DNA of 35,685 nt. Origin: Minisyncoccota bacterium (lineage in GTDB: Bacteria > Patescibacteriota > Minisyncoccia > Minisyncoccales > PWPS01). Of this stretch, positions 2,260-8,194 are shown in pieces; position 1 is the first letter of the stretch; every line of letters starts with the position of its first letter. The notes under the pieces are model-generated. The model searched no databases and was not told the origin of the DNA. It saw nothing but the letters and a program-made list of their open reading frames with translations. A program made the translations under genes and the position numbers. The stretch covers positions 1 to 35,685 of the forward strand of contig JAIPIL010000003.1 of the NCBI GenBank assembly GCA_021734685.1, read 5' to 3'.

Positions 2260-3612
2260 TTAAATATTTATTAAGTTATTAAATCTCTCGATATCTCCCT
2301 CGGAATAGACAACTAATTCTTCAAGAACCTTAATGCCAGCACCATCATTAATAGTTTCTAACGCTAACTTTGATCCTCTTTTTAGGTCATTAATTACTTC
2401 TAATCCAAAGAGATTCAAGGCAACCTCCATCGCCACTGCTTGTTTGAGCTCTTTATTCCCACGACCAATTAAAATTTTAATAAATTCATTAAAATTTTCC
2501 CTTTGGTTCTGAGCAGTCTCTATGTGTTTAAATGGTCTGAAGTCAAACCCAAAATCTTTCGGAGCGATTTCTTTGACAGTTATTCTGTTCTTAATAATTT
2601 GAGTAATTTCGGTGTTGGCTGCTATGGAAATTTGATCAATAATCGGCGTACCATATAAATCTTTTCCCTGCAACACAAGAATATTTTTGTTAGGATACAA
2701 TTTACTCAAAATACCCAAACATAATCTTGTTGATCCTCTTGTCAGGCCATAATTAATTAAATCAACATTAACCGGATTTACTATAGCTGCTCCACCGACT
2801 AGCCCAGCAAATACTTGAACATCGTGCAAACAACCATCGTATACATAATTTAATCGGGGAACGATAGTATTGATATCGAATATTCCAAGTTTTGTTATAA
2901 GTGAAACCTCGGCCATCTTATCAATTGGTAAATTTAGGTTTACTCCAACAAGTTCGAATATATCACCCGACCCAGTTATACTAGAAGTCGCCCTAGATAC
3001 AGTTTTTTCTACTACAATATTTTCTCCAATCTTTTTACCAACTGCCGCTGTAATAATAGCAGCCATCGAACTAATATTTAATAATTTGATTTCTTTTTTA
3101 CCACTACCAGCTAAACTAATTAATTTTGCCTTGTTTTTATCAAGATTTATTTTCTGTTGGATGCTAAAATTATCTAAGCTAAGGGCTGATGTAATTATTG
3201 CTATTCCATATTCAACTGCTCTGTCAAAATTTTCAGGACTATTCATAAATGACCATAATGAACCATAAAAGCACCCCATTAAAATATCTCGATATTTTTT
3301 ATCGTTATCAGAAATTTTAAGTATATTTAAAAACACGCCCCCTACTTTTTCAGGAGGAGGCGACACATTTCCTTGTAAAAAAGAAAGGCATTTCAGGAAA
3401 TTTTCATCTGTTTTTAATTTTTCAAGACTACTATCTGAAAATCTATTGAATTTTGAAAAGTAGTAAAGAGCTAAAATCCCTTGATATACATTCAAATCAT
3501 GGTCAGAACTATTAACCAAATTTAATACATTAAGAATTTCTGATTCTCTAAAATCATTGCCATCTATTATGTGTTCTGTAAATTTTATGATTTTATTTAT
3601 CTGCTTTTCCAT
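2260..3612 (-). CDS. Divergent anthranilate-phosphoribosyltransferase-like protein (glycosyltransferase family 3 fold) with extended N-terminus
   Basis: AGSGKK...LNISSMAAII, KTVSRATSSITGSGDIFELVGV, IDQIS and I.P.DFG align with TrpD GTGGD/NIST/KHGNR.SS..GSAD/DE motifs, but with key substitutions. Confidence 0.75.
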   Translation of the reverse strand: MEKQINKIIKFTEHIIDGNDFRESEILNVLNLVNSSDHDLNVYQGILALYYFSKFNRFSDSSLEKLKTDENFLKCLSFLQGNVSPPPEKVGGVFLNILKISDNDKKYRDILMGCFYGSLWSFMNSPENFDRAVEYGIAIITSALSLDNFSIQQKINLDKNKAKLISLAGSGKKEIKLLNISSMAAIITAAVGKKIGENIVVEKTVSRATSSITGSGDIFELVGVNLNLPIDKMAEVSLITKLGIFDINTIVPRLNYVYDGCLHDVQVFAGLVGGAAIVNPVNVDLINYGLTRGSTRLCLGILSKLYPNKNILVLQGKDLYGTPIIDQISIAANTEITQIIKNRITVKEIAPKDFGFDFRPFKHIETAQNQRENFNEFIKILIGRGNKELKQAVAMEVALNLFGLEVINDLKRGSKLALETINDGAGIKVLEELVVYSEGDIERFNNLINI

Positions 3613-3697: not shown

Positions 3698-3828
3698 TTA
3701 ATTCTTAGATGTTTCTTCTATTACTTTTCTTACCCCTTCTGCCCTTTTAAAGAACCACAAAAATGACCAATGTGCAACTTCCCCGTTGGTCTATCCCCAG
3801 TAAGAATTCTTTTTTTATTACTGCTCAT
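3698..3828 (-). pseudogene. trpS: Tryptophanyl-tRNA synthetase remnant (N-terminus joined to a C-terminus-like segment)
   Basis: Hand translation from ATG 3828: [32 protein letters not shown] (stop 3732-3730), which is the TrpRS TGDRPTG.LHIGH motif. The -1 frame from 3748 reads [16 protein letters not shown], resembling the TrpRS C-terminal GAEKAR..AEET helix. Confidence 0.85.
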
Positions 3829-3871: not shown

Positions 3872-3904
3872 CCCCCATGTCCAACCCCGGGTTGGACATG
3901 GGGG
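3872..3904. repeat. Perfect 16-bp GC-rich inverted repeat
   Basis: CCCCCATGTCCAACCC-C-GGGTTGGACATGGGGG, lying between the divergent trpS remnant and the glyS promoter. Confidence 0.9.
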
Positions 3905-3932
3905 TTGCAAAATTATTTTTTTTAATTATAAT
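3905..3932 (+). promoter_or_regulatory. Putative sigma70 promoter of the glyS leader
   Basis: TTGCAA (3905-3910), 16 nt spacer, TATAAT (3927-3932), just upstream of the structured leader. Confidence 0.6.
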
Positions 3933-3942
3933 TATTTTTATC

Positions 3943-4121
3943 GGGTTTAACTGAGGGAGATTGGCGCCCCTCTTGATATCAGGAGACTCCTGTAGATCAA
4001 AGTTAAACAAATTAAGGTGGCTTAAAAGAGGTTTAACTCTCTTTAAGCAAACTAGATGGAACCGCGGGTAGAAAACTCGTTCTAGTGATTAAAAGGTTTA
4101 ATCATTGGAGCGAGTTTTTTT
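3943..4121 (+). promoter_or_regulatory. Glycine T-box riboswitch (transcription attenuator)
   Basis: Antiterminator: ACTAGA(4051-56), bulge TGGAACC(4057-63), GCGGGT/ACTCGT, TCTAGT(4081-86). Bulge UGGA pairs with the tRNA-Gly UCCA end. A mutually exclusive terminator spans 4072-4121. Candidate specifier GGC at 3963-3965. Lies directly upstream of glyS. Confidence 0.88.
4072..4121 (+). terminator. T-box intrinsic terminator
   Basis: AAAACTCGTTCTAGTGATTAAA-AGG-TTTAATCATTGGAGCGAGTTTT stem (several G-U pairs) followed by a T tract. Confidence 0.85.
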
Positions 4122-4142
4122 ATTAATTAATAATTTAAAGAT

Positions 4143-5537
4143 ATGGAGAAAAAAACTTTAGAAGAAGTAGTATCATTTTGTAAAAGAAGAGGTTTCATTT
4201 TTCAATCATCCGACATATATGGAGGATTTGCTGCTATCTATGACTATGGTCATTACGGAACCCTTTTGAAAAATAACATCCGTGATGCTTGGTGGAAAAG
4301 CATGGTTCAAGAAAGAGATGATGTTTATGCTCTTGATAGTGCTATTTTTATGCACCCTAAAACATGGGAGGCATCTGGACACTTGGCTGGATTTGATGAT
4401 CCCCAAGTTGACTGTAAAAAATGTAAACAAAGAATGAGAGCTGACCATATTCTTGAAGAATTTGGAATAGAGGCCGATAAAGCTCCGATGGAGTTCATAA
4501 ACGAAAAGATAGATGAACTAAAAAAAGAAGGAAAAGTTAAGTGTGTGAACTGTGGATCAACTGATCTAACTGAAGCAAAAAGATTTTCTTTAATGGTAAA
4601 GTCAAACATCGGTTCCCCAGTAGATGTCCTTTCCGAAGAGAATGTTGTTTATCTTCGCCCAGAAACTTGTGGAGGAATATACTTAGAGTATAAAAATATG
4701 ATGAACTCTGTTCACCCAAAACTTCCTTTCGGGATTGCTCAAATTGGAAAAGCTTTCCGCAACGAGATCGTTGCAAGACAGTTTATCTTTAGAACCAGAG
4801 AGTTTGAACAGATGGAGATGCAGTACTTCCTTCACCCTGACCAGATGAAAGAAAAATACGACTTCTGGCACGAGCTTCGTTGGAGTTGGTATCTAGAGTA
4901 TGGAATTCCAGAAGAAAAAATGAACTGGCACAAACACGATGTGATGGCTCATTACGCAACAGAAGCCTATGACATAGAGTTCAACTTTGATTCTCTTGGT
5001 GGGTTTAAAGAGGTAGAAGGAATTCATGCTAGAGGAGATTGGGATCTCTCACAACACTCTAAACACTCTGGAGTTGATCTAAGCTACACTGATGATCAAA
5101 CAAAAGAGAAGTTTATTCCACACATTATGGAAACCTCTGTTGGATTAAACCGTCTTGTTTTAATGTTTATTGATAACGGATATACAAAAGAAAATGTTGA
5201 TGGAGAGGAAAGATTGGTGTTGAAAATAGACAAAAGATTATCTCCAATAAAGGTTGCCATCTTCCCACTTATGAAGAATAAGCCAGAGATAATGGAGCAA
5301 GCAAAAAAAATCCACGAATCTCTTAAGAGAAAGTGGATGTGTGAATTTGATACCAGCGGAAGTATCGGAAAAAGATACCGAAGACAAGATGAGATCGGAA
5401 CTCCTTACTGTGTTACTGTTGACTTTGACTCCTTGTCAGATAAGTCAGTAACTGTAAGAGATAGAGACACGATGAAACAAGAGAGAGTTAAGATAGAAGA
5501 TCTTGAAAGTTATCTTTCTGAGAAACTGTCCCTATAA
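4143..5537 (+). CDS. glyS: Glycine--tRNA ligase, alpha2 (homodimeric) type
   Basis: CKRRGF, YDYG..G, LRPET, QIGKAFRNE, FRTREFEQME, GSIGKRYRRQDEIGTP; insertion with two CxxC pairs. Confidence 0.97.
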   Translation: MEKKTLEEVVSFCKRRGFIFQSSDIYGGFAAIYDYGHYGTLLKNNIRDAWWKSMVQERDDVYALDSAIFMHPKTWEASGHLAGFDDPQVDCKKCKQRMRADHILEEFGIEADKAPMEFINEKIDELKKEGKVKCVNCGSTDLTEAKRFSLMVKSNIGSPVDVLSEENVVYLRPETCGGIYLEYKNMMNSVHPKLPFGIAQIGKAFRNEIVARQFIFRTREFEQMEMQYFLHPDQMKEKYDFWHELRWSWYLEYGIPEEKMNWHKHDVMAHYATEAYDIEFNFDSLGGFKEVEGIHARGDWDLSQHSKHSGVDLSYTDDQTKEKFIPHIMETSVGLNRLVLMFIDNGYTKENVDGEERLVLKIDKRLSPIKVAIFPLMKNKPEIMEQAKKIHESLKRKWMCEFDTSGSIGKRYRRQDEIGTPYCVTVDFDSLSDKSVTVRDRDTMKQERVKIEDLESYLSEKLSL

Positions 5538-7688
5538 TACTGGCCACTCTTCTATCATCAGTGTTTCCTTTTTGTCTGAAAAAGGAAATCGTTGATATAT
5601 CTCCTCGGTAACATAAGGCATAAAAGGATGCATCACCTTTAAGGACTCAAGCAGGATTCTTCTAAGAAGATCCTGTCTTGTTTTCTTTCTGCTCTCATCA
5701 TCAAGCACGCTTTTTGAATCCTCCAACACTTTATCAGCAAAAGTATGCCAAATATAATGATAAATAGTTTCCGCAGAAAGAGAAAACTTAAACTCTTCTA
5801 AGTTTTTTGTTGTTTCTTTGGCTGCCTCTACAAATTCACTATATATCGCCTTGTCCTCATCACTCCAATCTTTCTCAGTAACGCTGTTATCATAATCTTC
5901 AGTTCTCATCATTATGAATCGTGATATATTCCAAATCTTGTTTGCAAAGTTGCGATATCCGCGAATCTTATCCTCAGAAAGTTTAATATCGTTCCCCGGA
6001 GCAGAACCGATTACAAGAGAGAGACGAGTTGCATCTGCGCCATACTCATCAACCATATCAAGTGGATCTATTGTGTTTCCCAAAGACTTGCTCATCTTTT
6101 TTCCTTTTCCATCACGAACCATTCCGTGGAGATAAACATTTTTGAAAGGAATCTCGCCAAGGTTATAGGTTGTCATCAAGATCATTCGAGCCACCCAGAA
6201 GAACAAGATATCATATCCCGTCTCTAAAACATCAGTTGGGTGATACTTCTTTAAATCTTCTGTTTCTTTTGGCCAACCCAAAGTGGAAAAAGTCCAAAGT
6301 CCTGAAGAAAACCAAGTATCTAAAGTGTCCGGATCCTGTTCCCATCCTTCTTCTTGTGGTGGATTGATATCACAGTAAGTTTCACCCTCTTTATACCAAA
6401 CTGGAATCTGATGACCATACCATATCTGCCTACTAATACACCAGTTGTGAAGATTATCTATCCACTGGTAATATATCTTATTAAATCTATCCGGAAATAT
6501 TTTCACCTCCCCTGTTTCAACTACTTTCTGCATAAGTTCCTTTAATGAAACCTCATCTCCTGTTTTAAATCCCTTTATCTTTGAAAAAGAAAGGTTAAAT
6601 TTTTTATTAACATCAACAAACCACTGTTTTTTTATCTGTGGTTCTATTACTCCTCCTCCCCTACTATTTAGAGCAACTCGGTGAGTGTAATTTTCTTCAA
6701 CTTTAACAACCAATCCTTTTTCGCGAAGTTTTTCAACAACAAGCGCTCTTGCCTTTTTAATCTTTAATCCTTCAAATTCTTTTGCGATTGGAAGCATCTT
6801 TCCATCAAATCCAATAATTTGTTCTTTTTCTAAATTGTGTCTTTCTGCAATCTCAAAATCAGTGTTATCATGCCAAGGAGTGATTGTCATTACTCCTGTT
6901 CCAAACTCAGGATCAATAACATCATCCTTGATTACTGTTGCAATTACTTCTCCATTAATCCACTCCACAGTTATTTTTTGACCGTGTTCATATTTTTTAT
7001 AGCGCCTGTCATCGGGATGCATTACAACATATTTATCCCCAAGCTTTGTTTCTGGGCGAGAAGTTGCTATTACAAAAGGACCAAACTGAAGATAATAAAA
7101 AGATGTTTTTTCTTCTTTATACTCTATCTCATCGTCTGAAACAGTGGTCTGCATAAAAGGATCCCAGTTAACAATTCGTGCTCCTTGATAAATAAGTCCA
7201 TCGTCATACATTCTTTTAAAAGCAGTTCTAACTGCTAAGCTTCTCTCTTCATCAAGAGTAAACGCCTCTCTACTCCAATCCAAAGAAGCTCCCATTTTTT
7301 TAACTTGATTTATTATTGTATCGTGATTATCTTTTGCAAACTGATGAACTCTCTCTAAAAAAAGATCACGACCAAGATCGTGCCTCGTCTTTCCTTCTTT
7401 TTCGTATATTATTTTTTCAGTCTTGTTTGCAGTTGCAATCGCTGCATGATCAGTTCCAGGAAGCCAAAGCGTTTTCTTTCCTCTCATTCGGTTAAAACGA
7501 ACTAAAGCATCTTGATACGCAAGCATTGCCGCATGCCCCATGTGTAGTTTTCCTGTAACATTTGGTGGAGGCAGTACAACTGTATATGACTCCCCTTCCG
7601 GAAGATTGTCTGGATTAAAGTATCCGCTATCTTCCCAAAGTTTATAATTTTTTTCTTCGCAAAGTTCGTGATTATATTTTTTTTCCAT
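5532..7688 (-). CDS. valS: Valine--tRNA ligase (no C-terminal coiled-coil arm)
   Basis: PPPNVTGKLHMGH, GTDHAAIAT, WCISRQIWYGH, DTWFSS, KMSKS. Start moved to ATG 7688 (MEKKYNH), which avoids overlap with idi. Confidence 0.96.
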   Translation of the reverse strand: MEKKYNHELCEEKNYKLWEDSGYFNPDNLPEGESYTVVLPPPNVTGKLHMGHAAMLAYQDALVRFNRMRGKKTLWLPGTDHAAIATANKTEKIIYEKEGKTRHDLGRDLFLERVHQFAKDNHDTIINQVKKMGASLDWSREAFTLDEERSLAVRTAFKRMYDDGLIYQGARIVNWDPFMQTTVSDDEIEYKEEKTSFYYLQFGPFVIATSRPETKLGDKYVVMHPDDRRYKKYEHGQKITVEWINGEVIATVIKDDVIDPEFGTGVMTITPWHDNTDFEIAERHNLEKEQIIGFDGKMLPIAKEFEGLKIKKARALVVEKLREKGLVVKVEENYTHRVALNSRGGGVIEPQIKKQWFVDVNKKFNLSFSKIKGFKTGDEVSLKELMQKVVETGEVKIFPDRFNKIYYQWIDNLHNWCISRQIWYGHQIPVWYKEGETYCDINPPQEEGWEQDPDTLDTWFSSGLWTFSTLGWPKETEDLKKYHPTDVLETGYDILFFWVARMILMTTYNLGEIPFKNVYLHGMVRDGKGKKMSKSLGNTIDPLDMVDEYGADATRLSLVIGSAPGNDIKLSEDKIRGYRNFANKIWNISRFIMMRTEDYDNSVTEKDWSDEDKAIYSEFVEAAKETTKNLEEFKFSLSAETIYHYIWHTFADKVLEDSKSVLDDESRKKTRQDLLRRILLESLKVMHPFMPYVTEEIYQRFPFSDKKETLMIEEWPVL

Positions 7689-7693
7689 AACAA

Positions 7694-8194
7694 CTAAAAG
7701 AATTTTCTGATTTCTTGAATAAACCAAGGAGTAAACTTCTCAGGAGTTCGCTCAACTTCTTTTTTTAAATCATCAAGAGATATCCACTTCATCTCTTCAA
7801 CTTCTTCTGGGGAAGGATTAACTTCTCCGCTATAAACTCCTTTTAAGACATAGCAAAACTCATTTTCTGATCCGATATCCTTGAATTTCGCACTATAAAC
7901 AAAAGAACCAACCTCTTCTAATTCACAAGAAAAACCAAGTTCTTCAAAAAGGCGTCTCTTTCCAGCTTCTAAAAGATCTTCATTAGGAGCAGGGTGACTA
8001 CAGCAGGTATTGCTCCAGTACTCTCCCCAAAGCATTTTTTCTTTTGCTCTTTTTTGGATCAACAACTCATCTTTGTCATTAAAAATAAAAACACTGAAAG
8101 CTCGGTGAAGCTTTCCTTCTCCAAGATGAGCTTTTATTTTTTCTTCTCTCCCAACTTCTTGATCTTCTTCATTAACAAGAACTACATAATTCAT
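7694..8194 (-). CDS. idi: Isopentenyl-diphosphate delta-isomerase type 1
   Basis: K..AH...LHRAFSVFIFN, WSNTCCSHP, RRLFEELG, ENE, FTPWF. Confidence 0.95.
   Translation of the reverse strand: MNYVVLVNEEDQEVGREEKIKAHLGEGKLHRAFSVFIFNDKDELLIQKRAKEKMLWGEYWSNTCCSHPAPNEDLLEAGKRRLFEELGFSCELEEVGSFVYSAKFKDIGSENEFCYVLKGVYSGEVNPSPEEVEEMKWISLDDLKKEVERTPEKFTPWFIQEIRKFF

Follow-up and report, generated by a model that had tools for sequence, protein, structure and literature searches.

Current accounts hold that terminator-type T-boxes need a long Stem I to catch tRNA fast, and that short Stem I's need a Stem II clamp. The leader of a glycyl-tRNA synthetase gene in a Minisyncoccota genome has neither, yet such leaders have been kept across dozens of candidate phyla radiation (CPR) lineages before this essential synthetase gene. 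How so small a leader could read tRNA-Gly is the question that the locus raises. We analysed it within a stretch of DNA of 35,685 nucleotides (the window, meaning the whole of this stretch), which belongs to a genome assembly of 456,561 bases in 30 contigs that is 86% complete. An earlier note on the same DNA had described a glycine T-box with a miniature anticodon-reading domain, and we followed up its claims by folding, by covariance-model searches and by comparison with homologous leaders.

The glyS leader in the window

The leader (3940-4125, plus strand) sits between a promoter-like site at 3905-3932 and an ORF at 4143-5537 on the same strand. This ORF encodes a protein of 464 aa that scores 605 bits against NCBIfam NF003211 (cut-off 312) and also matches Pfam and TIGR00389, which stands for the dimeric type. 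We identify it as glyS, the gene for a dimeric-type glycine--tRNA ligase and the presumed target of regulation. The promoter-like site is of the sigma-70 type (TTGCAA-16-TATAAT, with the -35 hexamer at 3905-3910 and the -10 hexamer at 3927-3932) and agrees with the consensus at 10 of 12 positions; the transcript is expected to start near 3939-3941. From the -10 box it is 13 nt to the first helix of the leader, P1, and from the end of the hexamer 124 nt to the T-box bulge, close to the spacing of about 110 nt between promoter and T-box that had been noted before.

P1 closes the 5' domain by pairing GTTTAACT (= GUUUAACU; 3945-3952) with AGTTAAAC (= AGUUAAAC; 4001-4008), an assignment that draws on minimum free energy (MFE) folds, compensatory pairs and a strand-swap test. 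Directly inside P1 is the specifier hairpin (3953-3972), a miniature Stem I whose 5-bp stem (GAGGG, 3953-3957, with CCCTC, 3968-3972) carries a 10-nt apical loop, AGATTGGCGC (= AGAUUGGCGC; 3958-3967), with the glycine codon GGC at 3963-3965; folds, the loop consensus and double changes in the stem all point to it. The folds also place a second hairpin within P1 (UUGAU..CAGGA-GAC-UCCUG..AUCAA, 3973-4000), which is a lineage-specific insert. A short single-stranded stretch (4009-4014) links P1 to the purine string AGGUG (4015-4019), which corresponds to the RRRxG motif as given in the relevant part of PMC7583486 and forms the 5' flank of Stem III (4020-4048); in the family alignment, columns A76, G77 and G80 of this string are invariant. 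On its 3' side Stem III is followed by a conserved AA (4049-4050). The antiterminator (4051-4086), which the Rfam alignment, the fold and covariation in helix A1 identify, consists of helices A1 (4051-4056/4081-4086) and A2 (4064-4069/4075-4080), with the T-box bulge UGGAACC between them (4057-4063). It overlaps at 4072-4086 with an intrinsic terminator (4072-4121), which is made of a hairpin at 4072-4118 and a run of seven T at 4115-4121. The discriminator half is canonical, with RRRxG, Stem III, AA, the bulge and a competing terminator all in their expected places, which bears out the textbook antiterminator and terminator noted earlier.

The tip of Stem III, GGTTTAACT (4030-4038), repeats the 5' strand of P1 (3944-3952) and offers an alternative partner for 4001-4008. 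This repeat is not present in the closest relatives, L017 and L072, and is probably due to chance or a recent event.

The host genome has genes for tRNA-Gly(GCC) (contig C25, 17971-18043) and tRNA-Gly(UCC) (contig C4, 7259-7331). The discriminator is U in both, so that after CCA addition the 3' end reads UCCA and is complementary to the UGGA of the bulge. The tRNA-Gly genes of six related genomes likewise have discriminator U in 10 of 10 cases, and the anticodon loop ends in A37 A38 in all 10.

The surroundings of the leader hold features of their own. Convergent with glyS, and overlapping its end by 6 bases (5532-5537), is a 731-aa ORF for a class I synthetase (5532-7727, minus strand), with matches to tRNA-synt_1 and Anticodon_1 and a weak match to the LeuRS editing domain. 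On the far side of the leader, an ORF of 32 aa (3730-3828, minus strand) has the HIGH motif typical of the N-terminus in class I Trp/Tyr-tRNA synthetases and breaks off after it. Its match to PF00579 covers positions 4-24 with 17 bits and it looks like a gene relic; a complete PF00579 gene is present on contig C20. On the minus strand this ORF is preceded by a GC-rich hairpin of 15 bp (3904 to 3872) with a U-run, a hairpin that the close relatives L017 and L072 share, and it is followed by a TrpD-like ORF (2260-3612, minus strand) that scores under its family cut-off.

The unconstrained MFE fold of 3940-4125 contained both the three-way junction and the terminator (-64.2 kcal/mol, z = -6.08), and 0 of 200 shuffled sequences folded as well. 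Taken alone, the 5' domain (3945-4008) reached -20.3 kcal/mol (z = -2.84), which 2 of 200 shuffles equalled, and the stability of the 5-bp specifier hairpin by itself was not unusual (z = -0.84). At -25.7 kcal/mol (z = -9.7), the terminator is far more stable than the antiterminator alone (-9.5 kcal/mol), suggesting that termination is the default state.

A default Rfam scan of the window, at gathering thresholds, returned 0 matches. With an E-value threshold, RF00230 matched 3942-4087 with 36.6 bits (E = 1.5e-6), far under its gathering score of 93 bits, which accounts for the silence of the default scan. Among the features by which T-boxes are recognized, the leader has a UGGNACC bulge that matches the discriminator, an overlapping terminator, a Stem III flanked by RRRxG and AA and a codon that matches the regulated gene, and it lacks a score above the gathering threshold. 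In the host's family, just 1 of 28 genomes has a T-box above the Rfam cut-off; in CPR genomes, T-box regulation escapes notice at default Rfam thresholds. The RF00230 match had been expected to cover the 3' part alone. Instead, it runs end to end on the model, with 8 bases standing in for 74 consensus positions of the central part of Stem I, and the Rfam alignment of the window contains no distal part of Stem I. The deleted positions agree with the earlier reading that no long Stem I, AG bulge or distal loops are recognizable. We also considered a K-turn, as Rfam put UGA/GA of the window on the K-turn positions, and rejected it, the letters not being kept in homologues (for example, UAAGGG in L007 and L010).

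Homologous leaders, their conservation and covariation

Searching the 28 genomes of the family with RF00230 at E <= 0.01 gave matches in 16 genomes. The same bulge context was present at 13 of those loci, 12 of them before GlyRS orthologues and one (L021) before a ThrRS-like gene. A covariance model, R1, built from an alignment (A1) of the 12 GlyRS leaders, matched 13 of the 28 family genomes and 14 of 151 genomes in an even sample of the order, where it contributed two new glyS leaders (L026 and L027), the remainder being mostly thrS leaders. Across the phylum, an evenly drawn set of 151 genomes held no further glycine-type leader, the 7 other matches being mostly thrS or other T-boxes, which indicates that the type is patchy. 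A pattern that combined the bulge context, the purine string and the loop, applied to one genome per species, yielded 34 loci. Removal of 9 exact duplicates and of a chance match (L069, GC-rich and labelled Stellaceae, in which the structure is absent and R1 gives no match) left 38 distinct leaders. By their record labels nearly all are from Patescibacteria metagenome-assembled genomes (MAGs), namely Nealsonbacteria, Falkowbacteria, Moraniibacteriota, Parcubacteria and some binned as 'Saccharibacteria'; L062, L068 and L081 are nominally 'Gammaproteobacteria'. With 38 homologous leaders, mostly from Patescibacteria-group MAGs, the proposal of a distinct compact architecture in a CPR lineage holds.

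The loop follows the consensus GRGAUU-GGC-N and spans 8-10 nt, on a specifier stem of 3-8 bp (the 2 bp scored for L015 are an under-count). The specifier triplet is GGC in 36 of 38 leaders and GGA in 2; conservation of loop and bulge letters is partly built in for the 24 leaders found with a pattern that fixes them, and the 14 obtained with no loop pattern have GGC in 13 cases and GGA in 1. Before the codon, position -1 is U in 38/38 (14/14 without the loop pattern) and position -2 is U in 37/38 (13/14 without it), while A occupies -3 in all 38 and G occupies -4 in 37. GGC is thus conserved in homologous leaders, a check that the earlier note had suggested, and the loop together with the folds upholds its miniature anticodon-reading domain with the codon in an apical loop. 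One of the two GGA leaders, L011, comes from a genome (G007) that has tRNA-Gly(UCC) and is 66% complete, so that a GCC tRNA may lie in the missing part.

From the codon to UGGA it is 54-100 nt. Between the specifier hairpin and the purine string lie 14-55 nt, which include the 3' strand of P1 (5-9 nt of them in P1), and across the 38 leaders this interval has no conserved sequence motif. A hairpin ending at a T-run follows in 38/38 leaders, 57-98 nt past UGGA, with the start codon well beyond. Upstream, 36 of 38 leaders have a promoter that agrees with the consensus at 9 or more of 12 positions, 15 of them perfectly (12/12), and between the end of the -10 hexamer and the loop motif there are 9-59 nt, too few to accommodate a long Stem I. 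The promoters of L061, L062 and L065 are placed so close that little beyond the hairpin itself would fit. GlyRS is encoded downstream on the same strand in 37 of 38 cases, as the first ORF in 32, as an ORF that begins before the locus ends in 1 and after one intervening ORF in 4; the locus of L068 ends too early to show a downstream gene. The intervening ORFs, in L049, L052, L062 and L082, encode 191-211 aa, and two resemble small membrane proteins; the switch may control more than glyS in these four. A further locus, L100 (G289:C1:702654-702780, minus strand), has a hairpin GGAA-GUGGCG-UUCC, with GGC in the loop as in L015, together with a UGGA bulge and a terminator; its downstream ORF, of 143 aa, is not glyS.

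The three-way junction proved less general than the hairpin. It had been called perfect, and in the MFE fold of the window it is, whereas as a conserved core it did not stand, given that a second hairpin inside P1 occurs in just 14 of 38 leaders and varies in sequence and length. The junction is thus a feature of the host's lineage and not of the glycine type. Thirteen of the second hairpins appear in MFE folds (L001, L017, L072, L008, L009, L012, L015, L052, L056, L064, L067, L070 and L082); the fourteenth is in L055, whose MFE fold missed the specifier hairpin. Where present, they have 4-7 bp and no conserved loop of the AGUA/GAA type. The other 24 leaders have a short 3' strand instead, often A-rich. 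Several of them lack a P1 next to the specifier hairpin, among them L071 and L081, both of which fold as a plain hairpin and have no P1 at all.

Covariation among related glyS leaders had also been put forward as a check. Alignment A3 comprises 39 matches (the 38 leaders and a weak second match in L068) and, being fitted to the model, leans towards its structure; in it, standard pairs fill 98.8% of cells against 85.9% in shuffles, 13 of 20 pairs are changed on both sides against 6.2 in shuffles, and on each of five measures the observed value is reached by 0 of 500 shuffles. When the partners are shifted by 1-3 columns, pairing falls to 41-52%. Double changes affect 6/6 modelled pairs of Stem III, 5/6 of helix A1 and 2/3 of those modelled in the specifier stem, and helix A2 hardly varies. 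Covariation therefore backs Stem III and helix A1 as well as the specifier stem. Stem III is paired in 97.8% of cells over the 39 sequences, which bears out the hairpin of this kind reported earlier at 4020-4048.

As the 3' strands of P1 are out of register in the MAFFT alignment, we used a partner-swap permutation test for this helix instead of a column-wise count. Over 37 leaders (L027 left out), own strands paired at a mean of -6.29 kcal/mol and swapped strands at -3.15 kcal/mol, and 0 of 2000 permutations reached the own mean. A cruder count, of contiguous helices that have 5 bp or more and lie no further than 2 nt from the hairpin, gave 28 of 37 leaders with their own strands and 49% of swapped pairings, a modest excess; the strands are AT-rich and some of the leaders are close kin. 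In the consensus fold of the four closest leaders (L001, L072, L017 and L008), which is the three-way junction, P1 shows 2 compensatory pairs and 1 G-U change. The swap test supports P1 as the closing helix.

A proposed mechanism and its alternatives

We consider it likely that the leader is a tRNA-Gly-responsive T-box transcription attenuator that controls glyS; tRNA binding, charge sensing and antitermination are, like the start site, predicted from sequence features. Transcription would start a few bases before 3945, and the nascent RNA would form P1 and the 5-bp hairpin that displays GGC (3963-3965) in its apical loop. This loop would pair with the GCC anticodon of tRNA-Gly, and UGGA at 4057-4060 would capture the free 3' UCCA of uncharged tRNA-Gly. 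Capture would stabilize the weak antiterminator against the stronger terminator, so that RNA polymerase would read on into glyS. Charged tRNA-Gly would not be accommodated, and transcription would stop at the U-run (4115-4121).

As to how so little RNA could hold a tRNA, one reading, which we hold to be slightly less likely than not, is a fifth T-box class: a self-sufficient minimal switch, measuring about 105-145 nt from P1 to the antiterminator, that would decide during transcription and with just two tRNA contacts, at the anticodon and at the NCCA end, with no elbow platform, Stem II or helper protein. For tRNA binding, a codon-anticodon helix made up of G-C pairs throughout may be enough, together with the invariant loop context. 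The 8-10-nt loop GRGAUU-GGC-N would be pre-organized and would strengthen that helix, the U at -1 could pair with A37 of the tRNA as a possible fourth pair, and P1 would be a stiff spacer on the way to the discriminator. Two further contacts were considered. A pair between loop position -2 and tRNA position 38 has no support: the sole variant, L015 (G for U), comes from a genome (G006) whose tRNA-Gly(GCC) still has A38. A loop-linker pseudoknot, of GAUU with AAUY just 5' of the purine string, would be possible in about 26 of 38 leaders, AAUY not being universal. The base after the codon is a point against the attenuator reading: it is A in 17, G in 14 and U in 7 of the 38 leaders, whereas the part of PMC7583486 on this position reports a purine there as essential in glyQS.

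Transcriptional T-boxes generally need a long Stem I, and truncated Stem I's barely bind tRNA without Stem II, according to the sections of PMC7583486 that deal with them; where both are missing, tRNA binding by the leader alone might therefore be too weak or too slow. We regard it as rather unlikely, if a serious alternative, that the T-box works with help, a protein or a further RNA contact replacing the elbow platform and Stem II. The requirement of short Stem I's for Stem II, in the pertinent parts of PMC7583486 and PMC10482949, argues for such help, and every specifier hairpin has beside it an A-rich strand of 5-8 nt or else a small hairpin about equally tall. One candidate would be the A-rich 3' junction strand, and another the second hairpin, whose loop would dock on the codon-anticodon helix like the Stem II purine string. 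However, A-richness is expected anyway in AT-rich leaders, the interval between specifier hairpin and purine string lacks a conserved motif, and no candidate protein gene is linked.

All T-boxes with demonstrated function as terminator switches have a far larger anticodon arm, and the 5-bp hairpin alone has the unremarkable stability given above, as one would expect of a degenerate T-box that does not read the anticodon and senses any uncharged tRNA ending in UCCA, or of a constitutive attenuator, with the GGC loop kept for another reason. We find this improbable: within the 5' half, nothing else is as well conserved between distant lineages as the loop, the triplet varies from GGC to GGA alone and so still specifies glycine, P1 and the hairpin stem covary, and the linkage to glyS is kept in 37 of 38 leaders. 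Least probable of all, to the point that we give it very little credence, is an ordinary T-box of the glyQS type with a long Stem I and a start far upstream, a possibility that the earlier note had itself named as fatal to its claim. In its favor, the start site is a predicted one and a strong hairpin (3872-3904) stands just upstream, yet this hairpin is a plain 15-bp GC-rich stem without T-box motifs that lies upstream of the -35 box. Upstream sequence is unconserved between lineages, Rfam shows no distal Stem I, and the near-consensus promoters close to the loop in 36 of 38 leaders counter a distant start, placing the predicted one nearby.

No natural T-box would be smaller than the glyS leader, which recommends it for structural studies and for the engineering of tRNA-responsive switches. 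The persistence of a leader with neither a long Stem I nor a Stem II clamp points to a simpler way of reading tRNA, to an unknown helper or to slower transcription kinetics in CPR organisms.

Comparison with known T-box classes

A 2023 classification (PMC10482949), in the parts that bear on this comparison, distinguishes four T-box classes. Class I has a long Stem I with an elbow platform, an internal loop that holds the specifier, and a Stem II. Class II, which is glycine-specific, has a Stem I as in class I with an internal loop that holds the specifier, and a single-stranded linker replaces Stem II. Class III has a short Stem I without the platform and the specifier in an apical loop of 5-6 nt, and requires Stem II; class IV has an intermediate Stem I. 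Classes I and II generally act by termination control, and classes III and IV mostly on translation. A typical Stem II domain takes about 70 nt and its pseudoknot 21 nt, by the figures in the corresponding section of PMC7583486, and the glycyl T-boxes in the available part of PMC11404447 (2024) are long-Stem-I forms only.

Like class II, represented by glyQS and glyS of Bacilli (the Bacillus subtilis glyQS type), the leader has a GGC specifier, a UGGA bulge for discriminator U, a linker in the place of Stem II, a Stem III with RRRxG and AA flanks, an intrinsic terminator and a glycyl-tRNA synthetase gene as the regulated gene. Unlike class II, it has no long Stem I with an AG bulge and a distal loop (IDTM) that stacks on the tRNA elbow, nor does it have an S-turn-containing internal loop for the specifier or a K-turn that is conserved. 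Its codon lies in the 8-10-nt apical loop of a 3-8-bp hairpin, just 54-100 nt from UGGA.

In its 5' part the leader resembles class III, the ileS T-boxes of Actinobacteria such as Nocardia farcinica and Mycobacterium tuberculosis; in the descriptions available, these too have a short Stem I without the platform and a specifier in the 3' part of an apical loop, followed by a mostly purine base. The class III ileS T-boxes, as the relevant parts of PMC10482949 and PMC7583486 present them, are isoleucine-specific and mostly translational, sequestering the Shine-Dalgarno sequence, have a loop of 5-6 nt and need a Stem II with an S-turn and a IIA/B pseudoknot for tRNA binding. The glycine leader, in contrast, has a terminator with a U-run, a loop of 8-10 nt and a P1 that encloses the hairpin. 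Most glycine leaders have no room for a Stem II domain, and 24 of 38 have no hairpin after the specifier hairpin. The glyS leader thus joins a class III-like Stem I to a terminator and, in the manner of class II, does without Stem II. This combination is not described in the available parts of the T-box reviews and classification (PMC7583486, PMC10482949) or in the titles and abstracts of the literature searched, and we found no T-box literature for the candidate phyla radiation, Patescibacteria or Parcubacteria.

Further counterparts are thrS leaders of related CPR genomes (L021, L028-L034, L036, L038 and L095-L098). These have a short hairpin with a 7-nt apical loop, CUACCAA, that contains the Thr codon ACC, a UGGA bulge and a terminator; GCGAUUG precedes the hairpin, and a further small hairpin and GGACUAAGC follow it. 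They resemble the glycine leaders in belonging to the same phylum, in combining a tiny codon-presenting hairpin with a terminator and in scoring below the Rfam threshold. GCGAUUG, the extra small hairpin and GGACUAAGC are, in contrast, absent from the glycine leaders, and the glycine type appears to be the most reduced of the short-stem CPR leaders.
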